Source: a virus
Lineage: Duplodnaviria > Caudoviricetes
Reading direction: 5' to 3' (one strand)
DNA: 47,008 bases
Virus record (IMG/VR): IMGVR_UViG_3300048575_000432
Location: 1 to 47,008 of that record
Shown here: positions 3,238 through 41,430 of the stretch, one piece after another
How the letters are laid out: each line of letters starts with the position of its first letter
How positions within the stretch are numbered: position 1 is the stretch's first letter
Translations under genes and position numbers: made by a program
The notes under the pieces: generated by a model
The model's database searches: none
Seen by the model: the letters and a program-made list of their open reading frames with translations, nothing else
Told to the model about the DNA's origin: nothing

Positions 3238-3251
3238 TACGGCCCCATTTC

Positions 3252-3617
3252 TTACGAAATGGCCGGCCGCTCGCCCCACTCCTTGCGCCAGAGGTGTGGC
3301 AGGAGGAGGGCTTGGGCGTAGAGCTCGAGTTCTCCTTCGGTCGGCTCGCAACAACGGATCTCCCAGCGGGCGAGGATCGCCTGCATCTCGGCCAGCGGGC
3401 GGTGCTCGCGGTAGTAGGGACCGGCCAGGAGCCGCTCGACGGTTGACCAGATCCGCTGGCGGTTGGCCGCGATCCGCGCGGCGACGACGGCCTGGTCGGG
3501 CAGCCTTCCGCCGCAGCGGCGGAAGGCACGCGCGCCGGGCGGGAGGTTTTGGAACGGGCGGCCGCAGTGAGGACAGTACCGCGTGCCGTCGGGATGGGTG
3601 GCTAGTTCGCAGAGCAT
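3252..3617 (-). CDS. Cys-rich hypothetical protein, last gene of the tail operon
   Basis: 121 aa; CPHCG and further Cys residues. Confidence 0.6.
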   Translation of the reverse strand: MLCELATHPDGTRYCPHCGRPFQNLPPGARAFRRCGGRLPDQAVVAARIAANRQRIWSTVERLLAGPYYREHRPLAEMQAILARWEIRCCEPTEGELELYAQALLLPHLWRKEWGERPAIS

Positions 3618-3625
3618 CCTTCACC

Positions 3626-4993
3626 TCACGCATTGGCCCAGACGCAGGTCGGCGAGGCCTTGAGCACGGCACGGCCGGGCGTGGCCGATTCGAGGACAAG
3701 CCCGACCGTGGTCCAACTGCCGCGAAAGACGATCTTCGTGTCGGGCTCCGCGCCGGGGTCGCCGGCGTAGATCGTGGCGCGGACCACGTTGGCCGGCTCG
3801 AAGGAGAGCTCCGCCCACACGACGTGGCCGCTCTCGGCCGTGCAACCGGTCGCGACCCTCGCGCCGGACATGACGCAAGGGTGTTCCGGGTCGTAGGCCA
3901 CGTAGTGGGAACCGTTGGCCTTGGAGCAGTCGCACTCGCCGGCGTCCTCGAACACGTTCACGTCGAGGCGGTATTCCTGGGGCAGACGGCCGCCGGCTTG
4001 CACGTTCTCGCAGCGGCCGGCCAGGTCGCACAGGTCGCAGGCGTCGTAGACATAGACCGCGTAGAGGCTTGTCCAGCCGCCACCGCCGGCGGCGTCGTGC
4101 AACGTCTCCAGCCAGAAGGTCGGGCCCAAGGGCGGGACCGGCGTAAAACGGTTGGCGGCGATCGCCTCGGTGATGCTGGCCTTCGCGATCGTCTTGTAGC
4201 CCCAGGAGAGGATCCCGTGGTGGTAGGCGAGATCGACGGTCACGACGACCTGCGCAGTATAGAGCCAGCCCCCGTATTGCCAGGTGATCGAGCTCGTGCT
4301 TTCGGCGACCACCTCCCCATCCACGACCACTTGGGCCAGCATGCTGCCGTAGATTGCGCCGGGCGGCAATTGGTAGCGGTACTCGATGTGCACGCGATCG
4401 GACAGCCAGAGACGACAGCGGGCCGCATCGGGGAAGCAGATCGTGGTGACGAGGTGGAATTCCTCGGGCATCTCCTTGAGGCAACGCAGCACGGTCCGCG
4501 GCGGGGGCGTCGTCGCGCTGTAGGGATGATGCAGCACGGCTCCCATTTGCCCCGAGGTGCCATCGCGGATCCAGTCGCCGGCCTCCTCCTGCCAGTGTTC
4601 GCCGAGGTCGGTCGCCGGCGTCTCTGCCGAGCGGTACCAATCGTCGCTCCACTTCGGGCAATTCAGCGGGCCCTCGAAATACCAATGGCCGTCGATCCAG
4701 ACCGGGGCGACCAACGTAGCCTCGCGCGCGTAGCTATGCTCCGCCACGTCGTAGGCGACCGCCACCGGTGTGGCTTGGCGCGGATAGCCGGTGTACCCAC
4801 TCCTCAGGTCCCACCAGTAGTCGATGAAACGGATCCAGTACTTCCTCGGCTTTTCCGCCCGGGTCGGGTAGTGGCCTGTTTCCGGATCCGCCACGGTCCT
4901 GGCCAGCTTCGCTCGCCGGCCGGGCCCGGCCAGCGGCGGGCGTGTCGCGATGGCGTCGATCCGCTCCTCCAGTCGCCTCAGATGCTCGTCCAT
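3626..4993 (-). CDS. putative tail-tip / receptor-binding protein
   Basis: end of tail module; beta-rich core, Cys-rich C-terminus; start MDEHLRR. Confidence 0.55.
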   Translation of the reverse strand: MDEHLRRLEERIDAIATRPPLAGPGRRAKLARTVADPETGHYPTRAEKPRKYWIRFIDYWWDLRSGYTGYPRQATPVAVAYDVAEHSYAREATLVAPVWIDGHWYFEGPLNCPKWSDDWYRSAETPATDLGEHWQEEAGDWIRDGTSGQMGAVLHHPYSATTPPPRTVLRCLKEMPEEFHLVTTICFPDAARCRLWLSDRVHIEYRYQLPPGAIYGSMLAQVVVDGEVVAESTSSITWQYGGWLYTAQVVVTVDLAYHHGILSWGYKTIAKASITEAIAANRFTPVPPLGPTFWLETLHDAAGGGGWTSLYAVYVYDACDLCDLAGRCENVQAGGRLPQEYRLDVNVFEDAGECDCSKANGSHYVAYDPEHPCVMSGARVATGCTAESGHVVWAELSFEPANVVRATIYAGDPGAEPDTKIVFRGSWTTVGLVLESATPGRAVLKASPTCVWANA

Positions 4994-5352
4994 CGAGGAG
5001 CCTCCCGGGAGAACCACCAGCAGTTATTTTGGAACCGCACGATGAGGACCGTCCCCTGGGGCACGTAGCCGGGATCGCCAGCCAGGTTGCAGGCCCTCGT
5101 CCGGGCCTCGGCCTGGCGGGGAGTCGCCGTAAACACCTCGGCATCCTCCGGCGGCTCCGATCCGTCCACGAACACGATATAGTACCAGCGAGGCCGTTGG
5201 CTCGCGCCGGGGTAGTCGCCGCTCTCGGGAGTGGGCACCGTCATCGCCAGGCGGTCGTCTTGCCGGGCGCCGAGAAGGACTGGCCGGGCCTCGGCCGCGT
5301 CCACGCGGCGTTCCAGCTCGGCGATCCGGAGTTGCAGGTCTCGGTCGATCAT
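4978..5352 (-). CDS. small tail-associated protein, N-terminally paralogous to the next gene
   Basis: 124 aa; coiled start followed by PESGDYP...RPRWYYIVFVD. Confidence 0.6.
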   Translation of the reverse strand: MIDRDLQLRIAELERRVDAAEARPVLLGARQDDRLAMTVPTPESGDYPGASQRPRWYYIVFVDGSEPPEDAEVFTATPRQAEARTRACNLAGDPGYVPQGTVLIVRFQNNCWWFSREAPRWTSI

Positions 5353-5400
5353 GGCTCAGCTCTCGGCTTTCAGCTTTCAGCTCTCAGCAATCAGCTCGTC

Positions 5401-7596: not shown

Positions 7597-7667
7597 GGCG
7601 GAAAATGATGAATGATGAATGCAGAATGATGAATGAAAGAGGAAGACATTTCGTGGGAAATAGGTCC

Positions 7668-12161: not shown

Positions 12162-12270
12162 GGAAGAGAATGCAGAAGGATGAATGCTGAATGATGAATG
12201 GAAGACGACGCGCGGCGGGAAACCGGCGGTCCGCGATTCTGCATTCTGCATTCTGCCTTCTGCATTTCCG

Positions 12271-15476: not shown

Positions 15477-15553
15477 GATGGGGAAATGCTGAATGATGAA
15501 TGCAGAAGGATGAATGAAAGACGACCTATTTCCTGAGAAATAACTGCGTGCTC

Positions 15554-18795: not shown

Positions 18796-21396
18796 CTAGC
18801 CGGCGGCGCCGGTGCCGGCGTTGCGGATCACGCCTCGCGGGTTGCGGGCGGCCGCCGCGAATCGGCCTTCATACTGGAACATGAGGCACTGGTTCTTGGG
18901 GTTGACGTAGCGCCGAACCACCATCCGCTCATAGCCGCGGAGATAGGTGTAGACGATCGCCCGAGCCCGCTTGATCGGCGCGAAGCCGTACCAGACGATC
19001 GACGAGGCGTCGGACAGCATCGGCTCGACCGACCAGCCCACGCGGTTGCGGAAGATCTGGGCGTCGTTGGTCCCCGCGGGGACCACCTGGAGGTTGGCCA
19101 AGAGCTTCTCCGTGGTCGTCTCCAGGTCCTCGGGGATCACCGTGTGGGCCAGCGAGTAGTTGAGCTTGCGCTTGTTGGAGACGCCCGTCATCTTGCGCAA
19201 CAGGAGCCGCATCGCCGCCAACTCGGTTTCGCTGGGCGGGTTCCCCTGGGCGCGGATGTTACCGCGATCGGCGTGGAAGAACGTCTTGCCGTCCATCATC
19301 ACCGGATTGCCCACCAGGACGTTGACGCACAATCGGTTCAGCGTCTGGTCGTGGGCGTTCTGCTTGTCCAGGAGCGCTTCCTGGAAGCCGCCCAGGTCGT
19401 CATTGGCGACCATCACCGGGGTCAGGCCGAATTCGTCGCCGTAGGAGTCGACCTGGATCCAGGCCGCCTCTTCGCCGAACGTCGACTGCTCGAAATCCTT
19501 GCCGTCGATGTGCAACGGCAGCTCGCCGAACTCGCCGACCTGGTAGACCGTCTGCGGGCGGAAGTCGGGGACGCTGTCCATCCGGGCCGCCCAGGTCTGG
19601 TAGGTCGTCTCCGCGCCGCGGTCCGACGCGTCGAGGATCCGGTTGGCCAGCGTCGACATGAGGCCGGGAAAACTGCCCGGGCCGTGCATCGGCGCCCCGG
19701 CGCTTCCGCGGATCATGATCGAGGCCTGAGGGCCGGACTGGAGCGCGGCCGCGGCGATGTCGACCGGCGCGCCGACCGCCCGCTCGCCGCAGATCCGCAG
19801 GCACTCTTCGGCGTACCAGGTCAGCGAGCGGTGCTGGAGGTCGGCGGCGCCGGCCGGCTGCTGCCCCTGGCCCTGGATCCCCAGCCGCGAGCAGAGGGCC
19901 GCGGTGGCCACGTCGTTGAACTTGTCCTGCGTCGACGGTCCGCCCTGCAATCGGTTCACAGCTCGCTCCCTCCCGGCTTGGGCGTTGGTGGCGTCCAGCA
20001 AAAACTGCTGGATGCTCGTCCCGTTCTCACATGCCGCGTCGATCGCCGCGGCCTCGACGCCCAACAGCTCGCCCCGGGCGCGGATCTCCCGGGCGCGCTC
20101 GCGCTCGTCGGCGAGGATCTGCTCGGGCGTCCGCGTCTGCGCGATCGTCTGCGTGCCGCTCGCGGCGCCCGTCGTGGTGCCCTGGCCGGCGGATCCGGTC
20201 GCCGTGGTCGTCGTGCCGGCGCCCGTCGGTTGGGTCGTGGTGGTCTGCTGGGTCGTGGTCGTTTGCTGGGTCGACGTCTGTTGCGTCCCGGGCTGCTCGT
20301 CAAGGGCGGCCAGCGTCTCGGCCTCGCCCTGCGGTACGGCGCGGCCGCGGCCTCCGAACCAGGCGGCCAGCACGGCGCGGACCACGTCCTCGCTCGCGTC
20401 GGCCTTGATGAGCCCCATGGCGACCAACTTCGCTCTGATCTTGTCCATCGCAAAACTCTCCTGTCTGACAGTGGTGGTGGAGCTACGGGCGGTCGCCGGG
20501 CCGGGTCGCGTGGGAGTTTGGGCCAGCTCCGCCAGAATGTCCGATAATGTGGCGATGCGGTCGACCAGTCCGGCCGCCTTCGCTTTTTGGGCGATGAGGA
20601 CCTTCCCCTCGCCATAGTTCCGCTTGACCTCGTCGACGGGGATCCCGCGGCTGGTCGCGACCGAGCCGACGAACTGCTCGTAATAGTCGGTGACCATCTC
20701 CTGGATCACCGCCCGGCCCTTGTCGTCCAAGGGCTGGTAGCCATTGGCCGCGGCCTTGAACTGACCGGCCGAGATTACCGTGTACTTGCGCCCGGCTAGG
20801 GCGTCGGCCTTCGACGTCTCCAGGTGCACGGAGAACGTGCCGACCGAGCCGACCATCGCGTCGGGGGCGGCCACGACCTCGTCGGCGGCCGCGGCGATGT
20901 AGTAGGCCGCCGAGGCGGCCATCGGGCTGGCCACGGCCACCGTGCGTTTGACGGCCCTCGCGGCCCGGACCGCGATCGCCGCCTCTTCCAGCCCGAGGAC
21001 CGAACCGCCGGGCGAATCGACGGCGATCAGGATCGCCTTGACCTGGTCGTCGGCCGTCGCCTGGCGAACCGCCGCGGCGAACTGCTCGGTCGACGTGCCG
21101 CCCGAGAACTCCATCATCAGATTGAGCTTCGGAGCCAAGACGTCCTGCAGGCGGATCACCGCCACGCCGCCCACGACCTCATAGGGCCGTTGGGCCTGGC
21201 CCGACTGGCCGCGTTCCTCCGCGTGCACGCCGATCCGCTGGCGGATCTCCTCGGGCGTGAGCTCGAACCCGGCTGCCCGCAAGTTGATCAGCTCGACGAT
21301 CTCCTCCAGCTTCGTCGGGAGAATCGCCCAGGGCGTCGAGCAGACGGCCTTGACCAGGCGGCGGGCTTGATGTTTCTTGGTGCTGCGGATCGGCAT
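18796..21396 (-). CDS. S49 prohead protease - scaffold - major capsid fusion protein
   Basis: DSPGGSV, AASAAYYIAAAAD, VGSVG (S49); Q/T-rich linker; DFRP...GEFGEL...YGDEFGLT..MVANDDLGGF (Gifsy-2/Mu gpT-like capsid). Confidence 0.85.
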   Translation of the reverse strand: MPIRSTKKHQARRLVKAVCSTPWAILPTKLEEIVELINLRAAGFELTPEEIRQRIGVHAEERGQSGQAQRPYEVVGGVAVIRLQDVLAPKLNLMMEFSGGTSTEQFAAAVRQATADDQVKAILIAVDSPGGSVLGLEEAAIAVRAARAVKRTVAVASPMAASAAYYIAAAADEVVAAPDAMVGSVGTFSVHLETSKADALAGRKYTVISAGQFKAAANGYQPLDDKGRAVIQEMVTDYYEQFVGSVATSRGIPVDEVKRNYGEGKVLIAQKAKAAGLVDRIATLSDILAELAQTPTRPGPATARSSTTTVRQESFAMDKIRAKLVAMGLIKADASEDVVRAVLAAWFGGRGRAVPQGEAETLAALDEQPGTQQTSTQQTTTTQQTTTTQPTGAGTTTTATGSAGQGTTTGAASGTQTIAQTRTPEQILADERERAREIRARGELLGVEAAAIDAACENGTSIQQFLLDATNAQAGRERAVNRLQGGPSTQDKFNDVATAALCSRLGIQGQGQQPAGAADLQHRSLTWYAEECLRICGERAVGAPVDIAAAALQSGPQASIMIRGSAGAPMHGPGSFPGLMSTLANRILDASDRGAETTYQTWAARMDSVPDFRPQTVYQVGEFGELPLHIDGKDFEQSTFGEEAAWIQVDSYGDEFGLTPVMVANDDLGGFQEALLDKQNAHDQTLNRLCVNVLVGNPVMMDGKTFFHADRGNIRAQGNPPSETELAAMRLLLRKMTGVSNKRKLNYSLAHTVIPEDLETTTEKLLANLQVVPAGTNDAQIFRNRVGWSVEPMLSDASSIVWYGFAPIKRARAIVYTYLRGYERMVVRRYVNPKNQCLMFQYEGRFAAAARNPRGVIRNAGTGAAG

Positions 21397-21416
21397 GGCA
21401 TTTCTCGCGAAATGGG

Positions 21417-22964
21417 TCAGTCCTCGGTGGTCCGGTTCGCCCCTGTCCCGGCCTCGTCGGAAGCCCGGGGCTTCGCCGGCGTGCTCGGCCGGTCGTAGTT
21501 CAGTTCCAGCCCGAGCCGCTTGGCGTAGGCCACCTCGCGGGCTCGCTGCTTGAGCACGCGCCGCCAGTTACGGCCCTTGCGGGCACAGATCGATTCGAGC
21601 GTCTCGATCCCGCCGGCGATCGCGGCGAGGTCGGCATCGGTTTCTTTCTCGGTGTCGATCTCGTCTACGGCCGGGTAAAGCAAGGCGGTCCGGGTCCACC
21701 GCCGCTCCTGTTTGCGGAACTGAGTGGCCGACAAGGTCCGGAACTGACCATAGGCCGCCATCACCCTGGTCCACTCCCGCCGGACGACGCGAGGGAGCCG
21801 CTTGCCAAGATAGTCCTGCGTTGGTTCGAAGCCTGACTTGTCGTCGAGCCGAGCCGCGCGGGCGGCCACGTAGGTCGTGCCGCTGTAGTCGCGCGTAAGC
21901 CGATACCGGGAAACGCCGCCGCCCATCCCGATGAGCATCAGGATCAAGTCGATGAACGCCCGGGCTTGGCTGTTGGGCCGCTGAACCTTGATCGGTTCGA
22001 TGTCGTCATCCTTCGGGATCTGGCAGACGATGCCGCGTCCCAGGCGTATCCGTGGATTGCCGAGCCCGTCCGCTCCGTCGGGGTCGGAACCATCGCCCAC
22101 GAACCCCATGCCCGCGCCGGGGGCTCCCGTCTTGTGGACCAGCGTAAACAGCGACTCGATGATTGCGGCGGTCAACTCGCTCCCCAGGTAGTTGTCCAGG
22201 TCGCGGGCCGACTGGGTGATCGCCGTGTGGAGGCTGATCGCGCGGCTCGCGCTCGGGCGCCCGGGCAGGCAGATGTGGATCACGCGGTCGGCGGGAACAA
22301 ATTGGGACTTACTCGAGTAGTGGGCATAGGGGTCGTTGGGGTGGGCGTCGAAGAGCCAATAGCCCACGACCCGGTGGTCGGCGTCGTATTCGATCCCGCG
22401 GCGGATCTCGTTCTGATTTTGGCCGCGAGGCTGGTCCTTGGAGACGTCGAGCTGCTCCGCCTCGAGGTTCTGATAGCACAAGGGGATCAGCCGGCCCGGG
22501 TCGTTGCGCCAGCAGCGCAGCGTCAGGCCTTCGCCCGTCTCCAGAAGCTCGTGGAAGAACTGCCGCTGCATGTGGCCGAACGGGAGCTTACCTTCCAGGT
22601 CGGCCTCGTCGTCGCACCACTCGTCCCAGAGGTCGTCGGACTCCTCGCAAAAGTCCTCTTCCAGCTCGCCGTCGATCGTGACGTCGGCCGTCGTGCCGAT
22701 GCCGCGGGCGATCACATGGTCGACCAACGTCCCCTGCAGGGCGATGATCGCCGGGTCGTTGCGCTTCAAATCGCGCACTCGCCGGGTGACAAGGTCCCAG
22801 TTGGTCCCGACCGCCCCGTCGCCCGAATGGTGCTCGGGCTGCCAGGACCGATTGAGCCGATTGACCTCGCCCGCACGATACGGCTCGGCGGCGGAGATCT
22901 CCGCCTGGCGATGCGCTTCGGCCAGGCTGGTCAAGAACGCGCGGACTTCGGCGTCATTGGGCAT
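21417..22964 (-). CDS. portal protein, lambda gpB family
   Basis: RVRDLKRNDP, LEAEQLD, IRRGIEYD...VGYW, LTRDYS..TY..AR, IDTEKE motifs. Confidence 0.9.
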   Translation of the reverse strand: MPNDAEVRAFLTSLAEAHRQAEISAAEPYRAGEVNRLNRSWQPEHHSGDGAVGTNWDLVTRRVRDLKRNDPAIIALQGTLVDHVIARGIGTTADVTIDGELEEDFCEESDDLWDEWCDDEADLEGKLPFGHMQRQFFHELLETGEGLTLRCWRNDPGRLIPLCYQNLEAEQLDVSKDQPRGQNQNEIRRGIEYDADHRVVGYWLFDAHPNDPYAHYSSKSQFVPADRVIHICLPGRPSASRAISLHTAITQSARDLDNYLGSELTAAIIESLFTLVHKTGAPGAGMGFVGDGSDPDGADGLGNPRIRLGRGIVCQIPKDDDIEPIKVQRPNSQARAFIDLILMLIGMGGGVSRYRLTRDYSGTTYVAARAARLDDKSGFEPTQDYLGKRLPRVVRREWTRVMAAYGQFRTLSATQFRKQERRWTRTALLYPAVDEIDTEKETDADLAAIAGGIETLESICARKGRNWRRVLKQRAREVAYAKRLGLELNYDRPSTPAKPRASDEAGTGANRTTED

Positions 22965-22968
22965 TGGG

Positions 22969-23178
22969 TCAACGTTCAAACGGTTCAGCGAGGAAGAACT
23001 GAGAACTGCCCTGAGCCGCCAGCCGCTCCTGGAGCTTCAGGTAGGTGTCGGTGAGCCGCGGCAGATCCTTGGCTTTCCAGGTCCGGCCCATGACGGTGTA
23101 TTCCTGGGTCGGCTCCTGGGTGAGCTTGAGGATCAGGTCCCCGTAAGCATCGACGATTTGCTGGAGCGTGGCGGCCAT
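22969..23178 (-). CDS. head-tail adaptor, lambda gpW-like
   Basis: 69 aa before the portal; QEYTVMGRTW..KDLPRL. Confidence 0.65.
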   Translation of the reverse strand: MAATLQQIVDAYGDLILKLTQEPTQEYTVMGRTWKAKDLPRLTDTYLKLQERLAAQGSSQFFLAEPFER

Positions 23179-23262
23179 GGCGATCCATCTTGCCAGACCG
23201 GTGGCCCACTTTTCGCCGGCTACCTTCCAAACTTTGGAAGGTAGCCCCTCATGAGAGGGCGA

Positions 23263-24015
23263 TCAGCGACGGGCATCCCGGTCGGCCTGGAGCATCTCGA
23301 CCGCGGCCCGGCAGTTGGCCCGCGAGTATTCGATCCCGATCGCTCGCCGGCCGAGTCGCTCCGCGGCGACGAGCGTCGGGCCGTGCCCCATGAACGGATC
23401 GACGATCAGGTCGCCCGGTTTGGTGTGCAAGAGAATGAACTTCTCCATCAGCTTGACCGGCTTGGCCGTCGGGTGCTGATGCTGGCGGGGCACGATCTTT
23501 CGGATGTCGCGGATCACGTTTTCGACGCGGTGCGTCGTGTCGTACCAGGCCGCCTTGCCGCCTGGCTTTCGCCCGACGAGGACCAGCTCGTAGGATCGCC
23601 GATAGCGCCACCCGAGCCCCATCGGTCCTTTGTCCCAGACCACGGCCTGCTCCCACTCAAACACCTTGGACATGGCCAGGATCCACCAGGCGAGGTTGAC
23701 CGATCTACCGCCGCCACCGGAACAACAGCAGCAACAGTAGCTGCCTGGCTTCAGGAGCCGGACCGATTCGGCCAGCAGGTGATAGAAGAGCGGATCCGCC
23801 CGGTCGTCGTCGTTGGCGATCGCCCGCGACGTCCTGCGCTTCTTTCCGAGATCTCGCCGGCGTGCGGCCGCCAGGTCCTGACGCTGAAAGCCGATCCCAT
23901 AGGGCGGATCGGTCAGCACCAGGTCAACGCTCTCGGGCTTGAGCAAAGGCAGGATCTTGCGGCAGTCGCCATGGTAGATCGCGATTCCGGCGCGGCGGTA
24001 GAACGGCCGAGGCAT
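23263..24015 (-). CDS. orphan DNA N4/N6 methyltransferase (beta class)
   Basis: GDC, VDLVLTDPPYG, HPTAKP, DPFMGHG, GRRAIGIE; no cognate nuclease seen. Confidence 0.9.
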   Translation of the reverse strand: MPRPFYRRAGIAIYHGDCRKILPLLKPESVDLVLTDPPYGIGFQRQDLAAARRRDLGKKRRTSRAIANDDDRADPLFYHLLAESVRLLKPGSYCCCCCSGGGGRSVNLAWWILAMSKVFEWEQAVVWDKGPMGLGWRYRRSYELVLVGRKPGGKAAWYDTTHRVENVIRDIRKIVPRQHQHPTAKPVKLMEKFILLHTKPGDLIVDPFMGHGPTLVAAERLGRRAIGIEYSRANCRAAVEMLQADRDARR

Positions 24016-24156
24016 GATATCTCTCCAACTCTGGTCGAAGGTGCGAAACAAAGAGGTGCAATCGAGTGGAGAGCCCATCATGCCTCCCCCGCGGCCCAGT
24101 TTTCGACGTCGGGTTTCCAATGTTTGGAAGCGGCATCCCTTGGGCGCGGGGAGAGG

Positions 24157-24360
24157 CTACAGAGGCTTACCGCAATGGGGGCACCGACGCTTCGGCGGCG
24201 GTGGCGGAGGCGGCGCAGGCTTCTGGTTCGCGTGAAGCCACTGCATGAGTCCGCACCACGGCCGATGCATCTCGCCATCCGGCGCGTCGCAGTTGCAGAG
24301 GTCCCGCGAGGAGCGAACGCCTGGCGGGAGCGGAGGCAGTTGCGGAGCTTTGGCGGTCAC
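24157..24360 (-). CDS. small Cys/Pro-rich hypothetical protein
   Basis: 67 aa, CNC...H..WC and CPHCG; GTGA-coupled to the upstream ORF. Confidence 0.45.
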   Translation of the reverse strand: MTAKAPQLPPLPPGVRSSRDLCNCDAPDGEMHRPWCGLMQWLHANQKPAPPPPPPPKRRCPHCGKPL

Positions 24361-24563
24361 TGTTCTTTCCCTTCTGGGTGACCCGATGAGGTCGTCCCCG
24401 CAATGATATCGAGGATCATGGCATCCTTCTGCGTTCGAAGTCTCCGGCCAAAATCCTGGAACGCTGATGCGATCTCCGCCGCATCAGGAGGCGGCGAGCG
24501 GATCCAGTCGACCAGCCAAGCCGGACCTATTTCCGGCGAAATGGGCAAGACTTTGTGGACCAT
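24357..24563 (-). CDS. hypothetical protein
   Basis: 68 aa, tightly packed in the operon. Confidence 0.4.
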   Translation of the reverse strand: MVHKVLPISPEIGPAWLVDWIRSPPPDAAEIASAFQDFGRRLRTQKDAMILDIIAGTTSSGHPEGKEQ

Positions 24564-24566
24564 GGT

Positions 24567-24917
24567 TCACCTCGCGGAGAAATCCTCGTCCTGCTCGGCG
24601 ATCCGCCGGCGGATATCGGGCCGTTGCTGCTTGATCGAAAAGGTGCAGCCCTCGACGGGGCAGTAGTACCGCGTGAAATGCGGCGTGCTGCCGCGTGATT
24701 CGCACCGCGTGTCGGGATGATAGGGGCAGAACGGCGCGGCCGATTGCCGGCCCTTCTGCACAGGCTCGGCCGGCGAGGATGCCGGCGCATCCGACGTGGC
24801 CGCGGCTTGGGAGGCCTCGGCAGGCATGTCGATTCCGAGCGCCGGCGGACGGCCCTCGACGTCGCTCTTGTTGGCCTGGATCTCATCGTCGGACGGTTTA
24901 CGTGGCGTCTTGGCCAT
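24567..24917 (-). CDS. zinc-finger protein (Ogr/Delta-like pattern), possible late activator
   Basis: GGGAGAG upstream of MAKTPRK; CPYH...SRGS....RYYCPVEGCTF. Confidence 0.55.
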   Translation of the reverse strand: MAKTPRKPSDDEIQANKSDVEGRPPALGIDMPAEASQAAATSDAPASSPAEPVQKGRQSAAPFCPYHPDTRCESRGSTPHFTRYYCPVEGCTFSIKQQRPDIRRRIAEQDEDFSAR

Positions 24918-24933
24918 GATTCTCTCCCTCGGG

Positions 24934-26907
24934 TTAGCGCGCGGAAAAGTCTTCCGGGGGCAGATCCCGCGCGGCGATCTGCTCGGATGATTTTGGAGTC
25001 GGCTCGGCCGGCCGCGATGCCCAGGGCCAATTAGCGGCCTCCCACTCACAACCGACGACCATGTCGGCGGCGCAGATCGCGTAGACCTCGCCGTCCCAGT
25101 AGTGATTGGGCATGTCGTGACTCGGCAGCACCCATTGTTCCGCTCTGCCTTTGGCGGCCGCCTCGCGCCGTTCGGCCGTGATCTGCCGCAGGTAATCCTC
25201 GCCGCCCTCGACGTCGAGGATGTTTTCCGGGAGCCACCAGACGCCGGGCTGCGTGCGGTCGGCCATCCATCGGCCGGCGATCTCGGTCTTATAGGCGTTC
25301 GTCTCGACACCCCAGGGACGCACGCCGTCGGGATACGGCTTTCCGGTGCGTGCGTTGCGATCGCCCCGGGCCGGGCGGAAAAGCGAACCGGGAACGATCC
25401 GCGGATCGCCGAACACGGCCAGGACGCGGCCGCCCGGGTGGGCGCGGACGAAGTTGAAGACGTCGGTCGGACGGTGACCGCAGTCGATCGCCAGCAAGCG
25501 GACCGCGAGCTGCGAATAGCCGAGCGGGTTTTCGCCCAGCACGTTCCAGCGACGAGCCAGCAGCATTTCGAGTTGGGCCAGGTCACTGGCCAGGACCTCT
25601 TGCACGTCGTCTTCATCGCCGTGCGTCTTCTTCGGAAGATAGCCCTTCTCGACGAGCCAGGACGTCTTCTTGTCACCCCAGGCCCGGATCACGTAGAAGA
25701 CGCCATGGCTCTGCACGTCGGCCCCGGCCGTGAGAAAATAGGCCTCCTTGGGCACCGATCCCATGGGATAGTGGGACGCCAGCCGGATCCCGAGCTCCTT
25801 CCACTTGGGCGCGTTTCCCCGCGGCTCAAAGCGGAGGCCGAGCCAGTCGTTGAAGAAACCTCGCAGGCCTTCTTCCGAGTCGCGGACCGTCAAGTACTTC
25901 TCGGCCATGTCGCCGAGCGTGATCGTCTCGGAATAGATCGAGCCAACGCGGTAACCTCGACGCCGGCCCGGATGCTTGGGTGCCCCCGTGACCTTGCCGT
26001 CCTCCGTGACCTGGCAGCCCTCGGGCGCCCAGACGCCGCGCCGAACCGCCTCGTTCTTCTCTTGGCTGTCGAAGGTGCAGCCCTTTTCGCAGATGTAGTG
26101 AGCTGCCTTGCGTCCTTCCTCGGGCGTGCGCCAGTTGCCCTTCTCGTCCTTCAGTCCGCCGACGCCGCCGCGGCCGGCGTGAGGTCCGCCCTTGTGCGGG
26201 AAGAATCGCAGCTCCTGGTAGTGACCGCATTTCGGACACGGCACGCGGAAGGTCCGCCGGTCGCTCGCGTCGTAGAGGTCGTGCATGTAGGGCGACTCGC
26301 CGACAGGCGTGCCCTCGAAGATCGTCGTCGTCGATCCAAAGAAGGCCTTCGTGCGCTCCGAGGCTAGCGACGGGCTGTGCTGCCAGCGGTCGACCTCCGA
26401 GCAAAGCACCTTCTTGCACGCCCGGCCGGAGAGCCGCTGCGTCGAGCCCGACCAGGCCAGGTAGATCCGGCAGTGTTCCAGATCGATCGTCCGATCGTTG
26501 CGCAGATGTTCGGGCAAGAGCTGGCCGGCCAGTTCGGGAATCTCTTCGGCGAGCCGGTAGATCACGTCGCGCTGCTCGCGGATGAAAACCTTATCGGGGC
26601 CGGCGAACATCATCGGAGCCCGATCGACCGCCTCCTGGCTCAAGAGGTTCGCGTGAAGGTACGAAGTCTTGCCGATCTGCGTGCCGCCAATAAACACGAT
26701 CTCGCGGACCTCGTGATCGTCGACGGCGTCGAGCGGTTCGCGGAGATAGGCATGGGTGTCGAGGTCGAAGCGCCCGGGCTGCGCGCCGACCTCCTTCGGA
26801 AACCGGATATGCGAACAGCACCAATCGGAGCGGACCGGTCGCTCGGCCGGAGGACGCCAGGCGTCCGCCCCCGCCTGTCGCAACCTCGTGATCGGATCGA
26901 GAGTCAT
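24934..26907 (-). CDS. terL: terminase large subunit, lambda gpA family
   Basis: Walker A GTQIGKT, Walker B VLCSEVD, GTP coupling motif, CPKCG, AGADVQ, AIDCG, NHYWD. Confidence 0.93.
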   Translation of the reverse strand: MTLDPITRLRQAGADAWRPPAERPVRSDWCCSHIRFPKEVGAQPGRFDLDTHAYLREPLDAVDDHEVREIVFIGGTQIGKTSYLHANLLSQEAVDRAPMMFAGPDKVFIREQRDVIYRLAEEIPELAGQLLPEHLRNDRTIDLEHCRIYLAWSGSTQRLSGRACKKVLCSEVDRWQHSPSLASERTKAFFGSTTTIFEGTPVGESPYMHDLYDASDRRTFRVPCPKCGHYQELRFFPHKGGPHAGRGGVGGLKDEKGNWRTPEEGRKAAHYICEKGCTFDSQEKNEAVRRGVWAPEGCQVTEDGKVTGAPKHPGRRRGYRVGSIYSETITLGDMAEKYLTVRDSEEGLRGFFNDWLGLRFEPRGNAPKWKELGIRLASHYPMGSVPKEAYFLTAGADVQSHGVFYVIRAWGDKKTSWLVEKGYLPKKTHGDEDDVQEVLASDLAQLEMLLARRWNVLGENPLGYSQLAVRLLAIDCGHRPTDVFNFVRAHPGGRVLAVFGDPRIVPGSLFRPARGDRNARTGKPYPDGVRPWGVETNAYKTEIAGRWMADRTQPGVWWLPENILDVEGGEDYLRQITAERREAAAKGRAEQWVLPSHDMPNHYWDGEVYAICAADMVVGCEWEAANWPWASRPAEPTPKSSEQIAARDLPPEDFSAR

Positions 26908-26950
26908 AGCCAACAGCAACACCACAGTCAGAAGACGCACGGGCATTCCT

Positions 26951-27481
26951 TCACGCTGATTCCGGAGCCGCCACGGCCGGATCCGATAGCAGATCCGCTA
27001 GGCGGTTGAGCGCCTCGTCGACGACCTTCACTGCGGCCGCGCGGATCCGCTTCCGCACCTTGGCCGCCGTCGCATCGGGGAGCACGGCCACGAGCCGGTC
27101 GGGCAACGCCTCCAGGAGCGACCTGGCCTCGCTGATGTGCTGCTTCCATTCGTTAAGGATCGGCTCTATCTCCACGAGCTTCCCCTCCTCGCGTTTCCGC
27201 TTCAGCTCCTCCAAGAGCGCCTGCTCCCGGACCTTGTACTCCTCCCAATACGCCCGCTGGCTCTGCTCGTCGGATTCGTCGCCGCGGCCAGTCGGCCGGA
27301 TGTTCGCCTCGATCCAGGCCTGGCAGTCCTCGACGCAGTAGCCGCCGCCTGGCTCCCGAGGCATTCCGCGCTGCAGGTACTCTGTGATCTGTCGCACCCC
27401 GCGATCGATCTCCGCGGCGAGCTGCGGTTTCGTGCGGACGACGGTCCGCTTTGGAGCCTTCTGCCTTGCGATGGTAGGCAC
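26951..27481 (-). CDS. terS: terminase small subunit (gpNu1-like)
   Basis: N-terminal HTH with YLQRGMP, coiled coil, EEGKLV, LEALPDRL; directly upstream of terL. Confidence 0.8.
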   Translation of the reverse strand: MPTIARQKAPKRTVVRTKPQLAAEIDRGVRQITEYLQRGMPREPGGGYCVEDCQAWIEANIRPTGRGDESDEQSQRAYWEEYKVREQALLEELKRKREEGKLVEIEPILNEWKQHISEARSLLEALPDRLVAVLPDATAAKVRKRIRAAAVKVVDEALNRLADLLSDPAVAAPESA

Positions 27482-31032: not shown

Positions 31033-31254
31033 ACTCACTAGCCTACCGGTCCGCCCTGGCCCGCGCCAAGAAGCAAAAAGAGGCCAGCCGACGGGCAACA
31101 CACCTCTTGCAAAGTGGGTATCGTCGGCTGGCCGGTGCATCGACCACCCTTGGAGCACTGCCTATTTCTTACGAAATGGAGGGCGTTTTGGGAAGGGGGG
31201 CGGCGGAAATGATGAATGCTCAATGCAGAAGGATGAATGGGGCAAGAGGACTGC

Positions 31255-34360: not shown

Positions 34361-34560
34361 GGGTTTTCTCCTTGTTGCTCCTTTCGTCGTCGTTCTTCCT
34401 CCGCGCGGATCGCGTCGTAAACCTCGCGCCGGTGGATGGTCACTTCGGCCGGCGCTTCGATGCCAATCCGCACCTTGTCGCCGCGGATCTGAACCACGGT
34501 AATGGTCACGAGGTCGCCGATCACAATCTGCTCTTCCTTCTTGCGGGATAGCACTAACAC
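34354..34560 (-). CDS. csrA: carbon storage regulator CsrA
   Basis: GTG start; MLVLSRKKEEQIVIGD..ITVVQIRGDKVRIGIEAP..VTIHRREVY; AAGGAGG upstream. Confidence 0.92.
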   Translation of the reverse strand: MLVLSRKKEEQIVIGDLVTITVVQIRGDKVRIGIEAPAEVTIHRREVYDAIRAEEERRRKEQQGENPC

Positions 34561-34595
34561 GGTTGCCTCCTTGCTGAGGTTGAATGAACGTCCCT

Positions 34596-36209
34596 TCACT
34601 TCCGCTTGATCTTGGCCAGCTCCTTCGGGCACTTCTTCATGTTGCCCGGCCGATGGAGCATGGCGATCATGCCGTCCTTCGTAGCCCCTTTGTCGAACGA
34701 GATCCCGAGCTCGCCGGCCAGCTCGGCCAACTGGTCCTTCGTGTGGATCTGCCAATAGTCGAGGGAGACCGGCCCGAGCTGCTCGCGCTGCCAGGACTCG
34801 ACCAGGTCGACACCGCAATGCGAGGCGATCGCCGCCAGCTCGTCGCCGTCAAGACGGTAGGCCGGGCCCGCATCGTTCTCGTCCCAGAAGAGGCGGGCCA
34901 GGAACTGGGCCTCGACGTCGACCACATCGCCGTCGGCCACCTTGGCCAGGATCGGCCAAATATTGCTGAAACGCGGGTTCACGCCGATGGTCTGTAGCGA
35001 ATCTTCGAGATATCCCAGGGTTTCGGCCGCGGAGAGCGCCGAGGCCGTGAAGAGGTGCAACAAGACCCGGCTCTGCTGGTCGCGTCCGACCTTCGTGCAG
35101 TCGACGATGTTTTGGGCGATGAAGTAGCACAAGGCCCGCTGGACCACGTCGCGCAGCCGCCGCCGGTAGATCTCGGCCTGCTTCTCGGTCCGGGCTCGCT
35201 CTTCCTCGGGCTCCGTGCCACCCTTGGAGCCTTTGGTAGGGTTGGCGCCGCATGCCTTCGCGCGCTGCTTGGCGATCCACTTCTCCTCGTGCGCCTTCTG
35301 GAGCTGCTCCCAGAGCTCGACGTTGGTCGCGTACTCCGCGGCCTGCTTTCCCTCGCCGAGCGTCAGGATCTCCAGGGCCTGGCGCTCCTCGCCGGTCGGC
35401 TTGTAGGCCGGCACGCACTTGCCGAGATCGTTCACATAACGCCCGTTGTTGCCGATCGGCCTGCCGTTCCTGCTGGCAACCTGGCTGACCATGTCCTCGA
35501 AGTCGTCTCCCGTGGGCGTCCCATCGTTCCAGCTCTTCCAGTCCTCAAACACCTGGACCAAGTCCGTCAGCAGGTACGGAAAGGCTTTGAGCTGCAGCGC
35601 GGCCCTCGCATGGGTCGCCGGTATTTCGCCCGAAATAACCCGCCGCTGCCAGTCCTCCGGCAGCTCCAGGAGTCGCAGCCGATTGCTGACGTGCCCCTGG
35701 CTCAAGCCGAGCTGCCGGGCCAGCTCGGTCGGGCCCGCGGCGTCGCCGGCCTCGATCGCCTGCTTGAACGCCATGGCCTCCTCGATCGCGTTGAGCCCCT
35801 TGCGCTGGATCGCCGACACCAGCACGATCGCCCGGGCCTGGGCATCGGAAAGCGGGTGGACCTCGGCCCGGATCGTTTCCCAGCCGAGCGACTTGACCGC
35901 CCGCCATCGCCGCTCGCCCTCGACCAGCTCATAACGGTCCACCGTCAACCGGAGGTCCGGCGCCTCGCGCACGATGATCGGGGATAGCTGGCCGTGGATC
36001 GCGATCGACTCGGCCAGCTCGCGGATCTCCTCCTCGGGAAAGTCCTGACGCACCTGGTATGGGCTTCTGGCGATCGCGTCGACCGGGATCTCCCGCGGCT
36101 CGACGGCCAGGGTCGTCACCCGCCGCGGCACGTCGACCAGGTCGACGGCCTTCGGTTGCCCATTGGTTTCCTTTCGCTGCTTACGCTCTCGCTTCGCTGT
36201 GCTGATCAT
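34596..36209 (-). CDS. parB: ParB/Spo0J/Noc-family CTPase DNA-binding protein with long C-terminus
   Basis: PYQVRQDF..ELAESI..HGQLSPIIVR, GERRWRA, LNAIEEA, HTH ELARQLGLSQGHVSNRLRLL. Confidence 0.9.
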   Translation of the reverse strand: MISTAKRERKQRKETNGQPKAVDLVDVPRRVTTLAVEPREIPVDAIARSPYQVRQDFPEEEIRELAESIAIHGQLSPIIVREAPDLRLTVDRYELVEGERRWRAVKSLGWETIRAEVHPLSDAQARAIVLVSAIQRKGLNAIEEAMAFKQAIEAGDAAGPTELARQLGLSQGHVSNRLRLLELPEDWQRRVISGEIPATHARAALQLKAFPYLLTDLVQVFEDWKSWNDGTPTGDDFEDMVSQVASRNGRPIGNNGRYVNDLGKCVPAYKPTGEERQALEILTLGEGKQAAEYATNVELWEQLQKAHEEKWIAKQRAKACGANPTKGSKGGTEPEEERARTEKQAEIYRRRLRDVVQRALCYFIAQNIVDCTKVGRDQQSRVLLHLFTASALSAAETLGYLEDSLQTIGVNPRFSNIWPILAKVADGDVVDVEAQFLARLFWDENDAGPAYRLDGDELAAIASHCGVDLVESWQREQLGPVSLDYWQIHTKDQLAELAGELGISFDKGATKDGMIAMLHRPGNMKKCPKELAKIKRK

Positions 36210-36269: not shown

Positions 36270-37418
36270 TCATTCCCGCTGCTGCCGGCGGCCGTTCGGG
36301 CACCACTCGTAGCCGTGCCGTTCCAGGGTTCGCTTGAACCGCGAGCACAACAGCCGGGCGGCGTCTTCGAGTTTCCCGCAATCCCGCATGATGCCGAGCT
36401 GCCGGAGGTCCTCGTCGACTTCGTCGATCGGGATTGGCTCGGGATTCCCGAAGACGGCCAGGTAGGCCACCGTGTCCGCCGCCCATTGGCCGGGCGCGTC
36501 GAGCTCGCGGCATTCGGCGAGAATCCGAGCTCGCAAGGTGCGGTACATCCGCGATGGATCGGCGTGCTCGACCAGCAAGGCCTCGACCGCGGCCGACACC
36601 GCGCTGCCGATCGGCGCCGGCCCCTGCGCGCTGGGAGCGTCTTTGGTGGCGCAAGCTTGGTTTGGATTGGATTGGGAACTTGGTAAAAGACTCTTTGGTT
36701 CTTTGGTATTGGGATTGGTGGGGATACCCGGAGGACCGCTCCCCAATCTCCGGGTGGCGCGGCGGAGGCGTTCCACGAGACTCAGCTCGCCCGTTTCGGG
36801 GGCCGACGTCAAATCGTGCGCACTTTTTTGTACAAAATCTGACGCCTCGCCCTGCGTCGTGGGAGGTCTCGTCGTTTCGGACGAGGGGGCAGGCGTCATT
36901 TTTTGCGCACTATTTTGCACCAAATCTGACGCCGGCTCTCCTTGTCCAGGACCGGGCGTCATTTTTTGTACAAAATTTGACGCCTCCTCTTCGTCACCGC
37001 CGACCAAGCCGAGCTGGGGCGGGCCGGCCTCCTCGTCCCGATACTTGTTAAAGAGCGGCCGGTCCTCGTCCTCGGGCCGGATCACGCACTGCCGGCCAAG
37101 GTCCTCCGGATCGGCCAGCTCGAAGACGGTCACGCCGTTGGTCGGCTTCTGGCGGCGACGGACCAGGCCGGTCTCCACTAGGCCTTCGATCCACCGCTGC
37201 ACGGTCCGTTCGTTCTCGCCGATCGCGGCCGCGATCTCCACCGTGCTCTTGTCGACGATCGCCGGCAGCGTGTCGCCGATCCGCAGGTCGGCCATCCGCA
37301 AGAAGAGCAGCTTGTGGTAAGACTTCAGCACCGGATGATTCCAGATTCCCCGGCAGAGGAAACACGTATCCAGCCGGCCCTGGTGCTCACTTGGTTGTCG
37401 TTCTTGTCTGGCTTCCAT
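36270..37418 (-). CDS. putative replication initiator (N-terminal winged HTH, internal iterons)
   Basis: EIAAAIGENERTVQRWIEGLVETGLV; repeats ASxFVQK in the linker. Confidence 0.7.
   Translation of the reverse strand: MEARQERQPSEHQGRLDTCFLCRGIWNHPVLKSYHKLLFLRMADLRIGDTLPAIVDKSTVEIAAAIGENERTVQRWIEGLVETGLVRRRQKPTNGVTVFELADPEDLGRQCVIRPEDEDRPLFNKYRDEEAGPPQLGLVGGDEEEASNFVQKMTPGPGQGEPASDLVQNSAQKMTPAPSSETTRPPTTQGEASDFVQKSAHDLTSAPETGELSLVERLRRATRRLGSGPPGIPTNPNTKEPKSLLPSSQSNPNQACATKDAPSAQGPAPIGSAVSAAVEALLVEHADPSRMYRTLRARILAECRELDAPGQWAADTVAYLAVFGNPEPIPIDEVDEDLRQLGIMRDCGKLEDAARLLCSRFKRTLERHGYEWCPNGRRQQRE
36660..36984. repeat. putative replication origin: three palindromic iterons plus AT-rich TTGG-repeat tract
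   Basis: g(g/a)cgtca...tgacgcc units at 36805-36846, 36892-36933, 36955-36984; AT-rich tract 36660-36720. Confidence 0.7.
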
Positions 37419-37926: not shown

Positions 37927-38769
37927 TCACTGCTCCACCGCGGTGTCAGACTTGCTCCGCTCCTCGCGCAGGTGCTCCAGGATGCCGGCCAATCGAATCG
38001 AGACGGCCGATTCACAGACGCCGAGGATACCGCCGATTGCTCCCATGGTCTGGTCCTTGAAAAAGTAGAGGTACAAGATCACCTGCTCCTCGATGTCCAG
38101 ATCGCGCGTGATCCGCTCGAATACGCGACGGCCGACGGTGCGCCGGGCCCGGTCGGAGTGGAACGCGGACGCGACGTCCAACTCGAAGCTGTCGCCTTGC
38201 CGCAAATACCGGGTGAGCGACTCGATCTGAATGCGCCGGCTCCGGCTCACCTTTTCATGGGTCCAGCCCAATTCTTCGAGAAGCTCTTGCTCCGTGGGCT
38301 GGCGTCCGAGAGTTTGGCTGAGCCTCGCCTCGGCGCCCTCGCGCTCGCCGATCCGATCGCGCCAGCCGCGGCCGCCAGGGGTTGCGGCCCTCATCGCATC
38401 AGTCACCGTGCCGCGGATCCGCTTTTCGGCGAAGGTCCAGAAATTCACCTCCCGCCACGGCTCGAATCGTTCGACGAGCTTGATTAACTCCTCGTGGACG
38501 AGCGATTGAAGATCCTCGAATGGAATCGAGCACGGTTTCTCCCGCCAGATCTTGCCCAACAGCCAGTTGGCCCGTCGCAGGTAACGCACCACAAGCCGGT
38601 TTCTGGCCTCGACGCTTCGCTCCCGATTGAATTCGATCCACAGCCGGTCGTTTAGGTCCGCGCGATTCGGCCCTCCGCCAGCCATCGGCGATGAAGCCAC
38701 GGCCGTCTGCCCCTTGGCCTCCGGCCTCGGCGGCCGCCGCATTCCCCGTTGCGTTCCCTTCCTTGCCAT
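37927..38769 (-). CDS. FliA/WhiG-like (sigma-28 group) sigma factor
   Basis: EARNRLVVRYL, ERFEP...NFWTFAEKRIRG..DAMR, LGRQPTEQEL, LYFFKDQTMGAIGGILGVCESAVS. Confidence 0.85.
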   Translation of the reverse strand: MARKGTQRGMRRPPRPEAKGQTAVASSPMAGGGPNRADLNDRLWIEFNRERSVEARNRLVVRYLRRANWLLGKIWREKPCSIPFEDLQSLVHEELIKLVERFEPWREVNFWTFAEKRIRGTVTDAMRAATPGGRGWRDRIGEREGAEARLSQTLGRQPTEQELLEELGWTHEKVSRSRRIQIESLTRYLRQGDSFELDVASAFHSDRARRTVGRRVFERITRDLDIEEQVILYLYFFKDQTMGAIGGILGVCESAVSIRLAGILEHLREERSKSDTAVEQ

Positions 38770-38798
38770 TGCCCGTTCCTTGCTTGGGATTCCTAGCG

Positions 38799-39107: not shown

Positions 39108-39153
39108 GGGTTGCCCTCGGGTGGATGGGGGAAAGGAGTTAGGAGCTAGGAAG

Positions 39154-40260: not shown

Positions 40261-40297
40261 CGCATGGTTCCTTAATGGTGTTGGGAAATGATCCGAT

Positions 40298-40594
40298 TCA
40301 CGCCCCTGGCCTAGGCAAGAGCCGACGCTGGGGAGTTGGCAACGCAACGGAGAATCCGCCCTCCTCCTCGCCCCTGCGCCTCCGCGGGGCCGGTTCCCGG
40401 AGGTGGACCTGGTCATCGGGTACCACCTCCACGGTGATCCCCTCGCCCGTGATGTCTGACCGGAAGTAGTGCGGCACGTGGCCGAGATACTCGCATTCGA
40501 CGAAGGCACCGCGGGAAAGGGTGTCGAGGATGGCCTGCACGCCCTTGCCGTTTTTCAGGGCGATCCGCATGAAGCCGATGGTGATGATGTACAT
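40298..40594 (-). CDS. hypothetical protein
   Basis: 98 aa, AAGGAG upstream. Confidence 0.55.
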   Translation of the reverse strand: MYIITIGFMRIALKNGKGVQAILDTLSRGAFVECEYLGHVPHYFRSDITGEGITVEVVPDDQVHLREPAPRRRRGEEEGGFSVALPTPQRRLLPRPGA

Positions 40595-40604
40595 GGCGGC
40601 TCCT

Positions 40605-41081
40605 TCAGGCAGTCGGGGCCGATGCGGATGTCGGGGGCGTCTGCCGGAGTCTGAGATACTCGACGACGCTGGCCAGGTTCTCAGCCGCGGCCAGGGCCAA
40701 GTCGCGGGCCGACTCGGCGTAGGCGATCGTGGATAGCGGATCGAGGCAAGTGGCTACCGCGATGGTGGCGAGGCCTTCGCTGAACATCTGGCGGGCTGCC
40801 GTGAGGTCGTCGCGGTTCCTCGTGGGGTCGGGGCCGCTTCGGCGACGGTTCGAAGTCTCCTGGATCTCCGGGCGTCCCGGCCCGCTGGGCAATTGCATAT
40901 TGGCCACCTGGGCGAGCCAATTGGCCCAGATTCGTGGATTGATCGACGGCTCATCGGTCACCATCTCGCACACGGCCTGGTTGTCAGCCGTGCGGAGCCA
41001 GATCCGATAGCCGTAGAGGCCCGTGTAAACATGGAGGGGAAGGCGATCGCGGGGGGAGGATTGCAGACGCTCGTTGGACAT
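40605..41081 (-). CDS. hypothetical protein
   Basis: 158 aa, GGAG upstream. Confidence 0.5.
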   Translation of the reverse strand: MSNERLQSSPRDRLPLHVYTGLYGYRIWLRTADNQAVCEMVTDEPSINPRIWANWLAQVANMQLPSGPGRPEIQETSNRRRSGPDPTRNRDDLTAARQMFSEGLATIAVATCLDPLSTIAYAESARDLALAAAENLASVVEYLRLRQTPPTSASAPTA

Positions 41082-41129
41082 GACGTTGCTCCGTAAAGGT
41101 TGGGGCAGGAAGAAAACAAGAGGCCCCTG

Positions 41130-41387
41130 CTATGAGGCGGCTTGGGCGGGTTGGGTTTCGATCGCTTTGACGCGAGTCAGAAGGTAACAGCCGCTGATGC
41201 CCTCCAAGAAGATCACGGGCGTGTGGCCGGAGAGCATCATGGCCCTGGTCCGGGTCGTCGTCTCGACGGAAGAGCCATCGTCCTTGGTGACGCGGACCCG
41301 CGTCCCGACGCGATGTGCCGCGTTCCACTGCTCGACGTAGGTCTCGAATCGCTTGGTCCGCTCCTTCTGTTGCTTGGCGCTTAGCAT
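41130..41387 (-). CDS. phage hypothetical protein
   Basis: WNAAHRVGTRVRV...TTTRTRAMMLSGHTPVIFLEGISGCY. Confidence 0.55.
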   Translation of the reverse strand: MLSAKQQKERTKRFETYVEQWNAAHRVGTRVRVTKDDGSSVETTTRTRAMMLSGHTPVIFLEGISGCYLLTRVKAIETQPAQAAS

Positions 41388-41430
41388 GGTGATTTCTCGC
41401 GAAATGGGTGGTGATGAACGGGGGCACGAT

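Follow-up and report, generated by a model that had tools for sequence, protein, structure and literature searches.

An orphan phage ParB and its probable target, a Noc-like palindrome tiled along the phage genome

What does a ParB protein read, and what might it do, in a phage for which no ParA is found? This question is raised by the IMG/VR record IMGVR_UViG_3300048575_000432 (Duplodnaviria; Caudoviricetes), which belongs to the provirus class and is 92% complete. We analysed the whole record of 47,008 nucleotides (47 kb), referred to here as the window. A sequence-only reading had connected its long ParB gene (parB) with eight scattered copies of ATTTC-N4-GAAAT, a palindrome resembling the site of Noc, and had suggested that the protein is a CTP clamp that loads on these sites and coats the phage DNA.

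The eight palindromes and the phage ParB

All eight palindromes were present where they had been placed. They are listed here (no strand is assigned to them) together with the gene in question:

3247..3260: site 1, centre TTAC; at a convergent junction, overlapping the stop of the final leftward gene
7648..7661: site 2, centre GTGG; intergenic, tail region
15528..15541: site 3, centre CTGA; intergenic, tail region
21400..21413: site 4, centre TCGC; fills the 20 bp that separate the portal stop from the protease-capsid start
24529..24542: site 5, centre CGGC; intergenic, between a terminase-adjacent gene and a methylase
31164..31177: site 6, centre TTAC; intergenic
35623..35636: site 7, centre GCCC; inside parB, codons I192-S-G-E-I196
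41392..41405: site 8, centre TCGC; in the early region, 4 bp ahead of a start codon
34596..36251, minus strand: parB, an orphan long ParB; likely start ATG at 36209, 537 amino acids

The palindrome stands out from the rest of the window. It appeared a mean of 0.02 times, and at most once, in 100 dinucleotide shuffles, and an unbiased scan of gapped palindromes (5-base arms, spacers of 0–12 bases) ranked it first, with 8 copies against 0.012 expected and 3 copies of the runner-up. The chance expectation, put earlier at well under 0.01, is about 0.01–0.02, and the GC content, put at ~67%, was measured as 65.2%; neither revision has any consequence for the sites. Within the window the ATTTC and GAAAT arms are combined with a 4-base spacer only, and no one-mismatch relatives of the palindrome were found there. 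Seven of the eight sites extend to YATTTC-N4-GAAATR, as had been noticed. Six had been counted at gene boundaries; by the new gene call there are seven, plus the one inside parB. The gaps of 3.1–7.9 kb also held, with a coefficient of variation of 0.27, which is more even than random placement (p=0.002; p=0.0016 with a gene-aware null) and bears out the view of a dispersed layout rather than a clustered centromere.

Relatives of the protein were then used for comparison. We found 107 homologues of ParB, the 76 best full-length ones forming the family alignment, and collected 80 viral and 5 genome loci by an alignment-based scan, a single-protein scan of viral contigs having given no match. Among 72,556 plasmids the sole near full-length match was on pPLIM01 of Planctopirus limnophila (DSM 3776), and there was none among 50,697 annotated phages. 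The annotation of this 37-kb replicon (L282, NC_014149.1) lists genes for terminase, portal, capsid, tail and integrase; it is circular, ParA-less and roughly single-copy, encodes the ParB WP_041404074.1, and carries eight GATTTC-N4-GAAATC sites, one of them in parB, that are evenly spaced (p=0.0015). Across the loci, a site lies within 10 kb of parB in family members and is missing near most of the distant ParBs. Tiling of the whole record recurs in the family, each phage with its own centre and across unrelated head modules, and even spacing is supported by nine family records combined (p=3e-8). Fourteen of 62 sites outside parB are inside genes. Two relatives, G009 and G295, at first seemed site-less and turned out to have shifted motifs, under patterns that were set once the data had been seen; for G031 no motif was convincing. 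Other phages with orphan ParBs (G036, G037, G038, G039 and G017) tile with different palindromes, namely GATTCC-N3-GGAATC (4 copies), CGAACC-S-GGTTCG (9–11), GATGCC-N3-GGCATC (8) and TATTCC-N4-GGAATA (4).

The copy inside parB is itself conserved. Its codons end three codons before the specificity residue T199, and they use ATT and GAA, which are rare in this gene (2 of 30 Ile codons and 6 of 50 Glu codons). In 19 of 23 family loci the gene likewise reads ATTTC-N4-GAAAT at these codons, again through ATT and GAA, which are otherwise uncommon, and 70 of the 76 aligned proteins retain ISxE[IM]. The parB genes of pPLIM01 and L293 carry the internal site, the internal copy takes the phage's own altered motif in G015, G009, G036 and G295, and it is absent from L006 and L017. 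Such a copy ties the site to the gene physically.

The motif could instead belong to the host, with phage ParB incidental. Sites of this kind would serve a host ParB, a Noc-like factor or another regulator, and the palindrome does resemble parS and the Noc-binding site (NBS). Several comparisons leave this reading largely refuted, and we regard it as scarcely credible. First, there was no site in 36 of 38 portal-related records without a family ParB, and the two with sites are 9% and 25% fragments; three weak N-terminal ParB matches in this set were none of them the family ParB. (A terminase-based control gave 4 loci, so the portal set was used.) Second, 61 host-family genomes (353.6 Mb) held 98 copies of YATTTC-N4-GAAATR, or 0.28/Mb, against 149/Mb in the window, a host density ~500-fold lower; the host copies do exceed a reversed-pattern control (17). 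Third, host chromosomal ParBs form a separate clade with R173 in 27 of 27 and G201 in 26 of 27 (Caulobacter numbering, used throughout), and the classic parS, GTTTCACGTGAAAC, is near many of them. Fourth, the motif varies from phage to phage in step with the phage protein. Fifth, one 6.76-Mb chromosome carries an integrated relative with a variant motif, and 11 of the 14 matches to this motif lie in the 41.6 kb around parB, the region from which the pattern was defined. One metagenome-assembled genome (MAG), G040, had 21 matches and seemed to speak for a host factor, but all 14 examined were the end of one repeated element with identical flanks. This chromosomal element end (L126-L133, L139-L144) has a site-like 14-mer followed by short repeats rich in CTAAG/CTTAG. 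Separately, a family phage contig (L083, G044 contig 12) is binned in a Patescibacteria MAG; its length and sites match those of viral record G004, and it is possibly mis-binned. Relatives, host density and variant motifs thus agree in assigning the sites to the phage protein, and the phage ParB very probably binds ATTTC-N4-GAAAT.

Recognition of the site

The protein is a member of the ParB/Spo0J family by both its ParB_N domain (PF02195, 1e-23) and its ParB helix-turn-helix (HTH; PF17762, 1e-14). It consists of a basic flexible N-terminal tail, the ParB_N domain, the HTH DNA-binding domain and a C-terminal region of ~310 amino acids, and its AF2 model has a pLDDT of 90. The best sequence match in the PDB is Noc (2e-34). 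Residues Q171/R177/E182/T199 correspond to Caulobacter 173/179/184/201, and the earlier Q/R/E/T assignment is reproduced by the alignment to 7ol9, where they face Noc Q158/K164/K169/R186. The window protein thus shares Q173 with Noc and has R/E/T in place of K179/K184 and R201. Q173 is found in 76 of 76 aligned family members and R201 in 8 of 76.

According to Jalal 2020 (PMC7383237), Q173 reads A1 and R201 reads C6. The family follows this rule. C6 occurs in 78 of 78 half-sites that go with R201 proteins (7 records) and in 15 of 140 that go with other residues (16 records; Fisher p=4e-6), with G009, G015, G017 and G023 left out of the table. R201 family members have the full Noc-type box, ATTTCC-NN-GGAAAT, and four R201 proteins are distributed over at least three parts of the tree; the box apparently arose by convergence. 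Three records (G022, G024 and G025) with ATTTC sites and a non-Q ParB were considered as exceptions; they were resolved by a second ParB with Q173/R201, and G023 is without that region. Where residue 173 differs, so does the outer base: G015 (P173) has G there in 13 of 20 half-sites, and second ParBs with D173 accompany GTTTC sites. Both proteins with a changed N178 equivalent have altered bases 3–4. The proposed check, covariation of residues 173 and 201 with the site, therefore came out as predicted (173 with base 1, 201 with base 6). A permissive basic residue at 179/184, to which a role had been given, is not required, as pPLIM01 (Q/L/L/A) and G020 (Q/T/D/T) are both tiled. We consider it strongly inferred that the HTH reads the site through Q173 (A1), residue 201 (base 6) and the N178 equivalent (bases 3–4), which would make the phage ParB/site pair orthogonal to the host R173/G201 ParB and its parS.

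This dependence on the protein also bears on a reading of the sites as RNA hairpins (an AUUUC stem and a 4-base loop) that act as antitermination or processing signals. Sites are often at the gene junctions of a one-strand genome, and 4 of 8 loops are GNRA on the coding strand. The stem would have merely 5–6 mostly A-U pairs, its sequence is fixed rather than compensating, the sites of G015 and G295 have unpaired arms, and the loop letters track ParB residue 201, all of which makes the hairpin reading very improbable.

Several phage records (G022, G024-G029, G017, G038 and G004) have two ParB-like genes, adjacent in G027-G029. In these records one gene alone seems to fit the tiled motif.

Outside the DNA-binding part the protein is less familiar. 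The N-terminal tails are basic, with a mean net charge of +4 over the first 45 amino acids; in the window protein this part is K/R-rich and forms no helix in the AF2 model (pLDDT ~50), with no dedicated test of amphipathicity. The C-terminal 310 amino acids matched no Pfam family and no PDB sequence or fold (best structural scores Foldseek E 0.5 and VIA Z 5.1; Atlas matches below 0.9), which does not show a new fold, and tblastn of this region against plasmid records gave no match. A homodimer model of the region scored 0.56, against 0.01 for the best of 3 controls, with a run agreement of at least 56% and a pLDDT of at least 73; 20 of 30 solved homodimers attain the mark used, compared with 1 of 23 single chains. 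The long C-terminal region is thus predicted to dimerise ParB.

Partner proteins, the CTP pocket and candidate roles

No ParA (PF13614) was detected in the window, as had been said, nor in any of 30 phage records (7 at least 90% complete) or the one complete pPLIM01, with a control positive in 14 of 14. The ParA-binding motif [LFI]G[KR]G[LFI] was found in 0 of 76 N-termini, and in place of a clustered parS centromere there are sites spread more evenly than random, so that each of the three marks of a ParABS system (cognate ParA, ParA-binding motif, clustered parS) is missing. SMC is encoded in 5 of 5 hosts.

The statement that ParB keeps the CTPase motif stood in part. GERRWRA is present, GERR is found in 73 of 76 family members, Box I Q52 and R54 are conserved, and the P-motif, Box I Q/R and the S/G of the cytosine motif are all in place; but Ser/Ala take the place of Noc E120/N121 (Caulobacter E135/N136; B. 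subtilis E111/N112, the E-N of ENLQR) in the window protein, and the E-N pair is kept in 14 of 76, G012 being an E-N-intact relative. Mutants at these positions have been described. Caulobacter ParB N136A binds CTP weakly or not at all and does not close its clamp, and E135A does not hydrolyse (PMC8367383); B. subtilis ParB E111Q does not hydrolyse, spreads further and retains SMC recruitment, and partition is impaired on loss of CTP hydrolysis (PMC8494293); KorB N146A binds CTP and represses proximally only (PMC11790492); and Noc N121S nucleates without spreading (PMC8429893). The label of CTP clamp is therefore uncertain for the window ParB, as it and most of the family are without the E-N pair needed in characterised ParBs. 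Tiling is found both with and without E-N, and the pPLIM01 protein has GHTR in place of GERR, yet its tiling is perfect. The ancestral system was probably a CTP clamp, and the E-N-less clade may have exchanged sliding for slow turnover or bridging.

What the protein does once bound is less certain. We lean towards ParB coating and organising all of the phage DNA in its extrachromosomal state, without a ParA of its own. Four observations favour this coat: the sites are evenly spaced, some are inside genes, neither a ParA nor its binding motif was found, and parB is placed beside a putative replication gene. Even spacing is what a coat would call for, whereas promoter operators can do without it. 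In such a mechanism, parB would be made with the early and replication genes after infection or induction, and ParB would nucleate every ~5 kb and cover the intervening DNA. Family members whose E-N pocket is intact would spread in the manner of CTP clamps, and the E-N-less clade would more likely form a slow-turnover complex or a non-sliding bridge between sites. The copy inside parB could limit the gene's own expression and hold gene and site as one movable cassette. Candidate purposes of the coat are compaction, loading of host SMC, positioning and protection; that hydrolysis-dead B. subtilis ParB still recruits SMC, and that the hosts encode SMC, is in line with it. Silencing of a resident prophage, one of the functions first suggested, is weakly disfavoured, since parB lies in the main co-directional run beside the replication gene and insertions in pPLIM01 come near the chromosomal density. 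In transposon insertion sequencing (TraDIS), this replicon had one insertion per 14 bp, compared with one per 11 bp on the chromosome, and one essential gene (PMC10632474), which is WP_013112526.1 and not parB (bioRxiv 2024.01.22.576637). That gene (28897-29193) is divergent from the run containing parB, has no Pfam match and may encode an immunity repressor. The Pfam scan names no repressor in the window or pPLIM01, so repression of parB in lysogens is only presumed.

Several points weigh against this reading. Spreading between sites is doubtful for the E-N-less clade, given the impairment of E/N mutants of Caulobacter ParB, KorB and Noc. The sites of G011 and G017 are not evenly spaced, and those of G005 (2 in 47 kb), G016 (2 in 38 kb) and G011 (4 in 49 kb) are too sparse for full coverage. 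The Fisher test of residue 201 against C6 ignores kinship, and 3 of the 7 R201 records (G022, G024 and G025) rely on a second ParB assigned after the first misfit. The 38 negative-control records are mostly incomplete (3 at least 90%). Finally, 48 of 62 sites outside parB are intergenic, some of them 5 bp or less from start codons, which also fits a regulator.

A regulator in the manner of KorB would bind the same sites and control phage transcription at gene junctions and in its own gene, by repression, timing or roadblocking. Sites 4 and 8 are 3–4 bp from start codons, the conserved self-site in parB fits, and regulatory genes (CsrA, a sigma factor) are neighbours of parB. KorB, which reportedly has 12 dispersed sites on RK2, represses proximally even without its Asn, and the natural Asn loss here matches this. 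Neither of the two consensus promoters in 28–47 kb coincides with a site, by a scan that is weak for this host; the junctions that carry sites differ between phages, and sites are inside genes where the spacing requires it. Even spacing is unexpected of operators, and no KorA-like partner turned up, with no specific search made for one. We see a genome-wide regulator as the main rival of the coat, though a rather unlikely one.

The sites could also be a dispersed centromere of a prophage in the plasmid state, with ParB-site complexes segregated by host ParA or SMC, as in N15 with no phage motor. The state of pPLIM01 (circular, ParA-less, about single-copy), the SMC of the hosts and the basic N-tails are compatible with this. 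It is nevertheless improbable, considering the missing ParA-binding motif (0 of 76), the integrases of the window and many relatives, several of which are proviruses, the impaired partition of B. subtilis on loss of CTP hydrolysis and the place of parB in an apparent lytic transcript. The coat, regulator and partition readings need not be mutually exclusive.

Taking coat and code together, a broader and more speculative proposal can be made, which we hold only tentatively: in temperate phages a self-contained, re-programmable ParB cassette, made up of the gene and a site in its own DNA-reading domain, may mark the entire phage genome as a separate mini-nucleoid that is independent of, and orthogonal to, the centromere of the host. 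Loading at intervals of ~5 kb would compact or shield incoming or induced phage DNA, or recruit host SMC to it; one large clade of Planctomycete phages would do this without CTP hydrolysis, and the Noc code would have re-evolved repeatedly in nature.

Gene context and relation to known systems

Ninety-six percent of the called genes of the window are on one strand. They include an integrase, a sigma factor, a weakly matched O-like replication gene, ParB, CsrA, a GNAT acetyltransferase, a methylase and lambda-like head genes. The main landmarks are:

42836..44134, minus strand: tyrosine integrase (PF00589, 7e-11)
18796..27481, minus strand: lambda-like head module, with small and large terminase, portal and protease-capsid fusion
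36270..37418, minus strand: putative replication initiator (O-like), directly upstream of parB (PHROG 270/391, weak, E 4e-5)

Given the integrase, the phage would be temperate, and its host is presumably a Planctomycete-type bacterium, as the homologues with a named source are mostly from Planctomycetota. The limits of the prophage are not fixed, since no tRNA turned up and the two window ends share no att repeat of more than 11 bp. Three iteron-like repeats within the putative replication gene (36798-36986, repeats D13/D20) are a likely origin. Host-like genes for CsrA, a RimI-type acetyltransferase and a sigma-70-family factor flank parB (33839-34599 and 37927-38769), and these neighbours recur in several relatives. 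Upstream of the integrase, a long palindrome occurs twice (44737-44788 and 44856-44907) and offers candidate repressor operators; a promoter-like TTGACA-16-TACATT is near the pair, at 44667 on the minus strand. Degenerate 60-nt (20-amino-acid) repeats at 8214-10112 lie in a 1035-amino-acid LamG/DUF2341 protein of the tail region. An intergenic repeat family rich in GATGAATG is found at 7594-7643, 12159-12208, 15461-15524 and 31198-31247; three of its four copies are within ~25 bp of sites 2, 3 and 6, and it is present in 1 of 9 relatives checked.

Among known systems, the phage ParB and its sites appear to work like KorB-OB or Noc-NBS while being a member of neither, nor of ParABS. KorB-OB of RK2 (PMC11790492) likewise pairs a ParB-family protein with many dispersed cognate palindromes on a mobile element, and the N-terminal half of KorB is structurally similar (8qa9, Foldseek E 1e-8). 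KorB, however, has a ParA partner (IncC), co-repressors and the Asn for clamp closure, whereas no ParA was found for the phage system, which has a parS/NBS-type site and the 310-amino-acid unmatched C-terminal region. With Noc-NBS of B. subtilis (PMC7383237, PMC8429893) the phage system shares Q173, a site with A1, the lack of a ParA and scattered sites. Unlike Noc, it is phage-encoded, belongs to Planctomycete-type hosts, has T201 and a degenerate centre in the window and has lost E120/N121; its N-terminus is basic and predicted to be disordered rather than to form a recognisable membrane helix, and its sites cover the phage rather than the chromosome. The fold of the N-terminal domain and HTH (E ~1e-58 to a host ParB) and the TTTC-N4-GAAA core are those of chromosomal ParB-parS, from which the system differs in having no ParA or ParA-binding motif, evenly dispersed sites, a specificity switched away from the host parS and a clade of its own. 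The F plasmid, also a mobile element, encodes HerB/YfjB (PMC13370423), a long orphan ParB that is expressed on entry and dimerises through a large new C-terminal module; HerB has its target on the host chromosome, whereas the phage sites are on the element itself, and no C-terminal sequence link to plasmids was found. Neither plasmid tblastn nor the PDB gave a match between the HerB D3-D4 domains and the C-terminal region, though HerB structures may postdate the structures searched. The prophage of N15 also has dispersed centromere sites for its ParB (SopB); N15 encodes SopA, a ParA, and is a linear plasmid prophage, which sets it apart.

Orphan ParBs are common on prophages according to a 2025 survey, the main text of which does not contain the string 'palindrom' (PMC12704722). 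In the literature covered, which includes few subscription papers, we found none that assigns genome-tiling sites to a ParA-less phage ParB. New here are a natural confirmation of the ParB/Noc code, a self-site in the DNA-binding domain, a degraded CTP pocket and a cultured host, and one family of these proteins now has a target, a layout and a recognition code. The family serves as a natural test set for the ParB-to-Noc rules derived by laboratory mutagenesis; it mostly confirms them (Q173-A1 and R201-C6) and contradicts the need for a permissive lysine. It is also a source of natural ParBs without the catalytic E-N pair, and of orthogonal ParB/site pairs for DNA labelling. With a complete copy, pPLIM01, in the cultured and genetically tractable P. 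limnophila DSM 3776, the role of an orphan phage ParB becomes directly testable.

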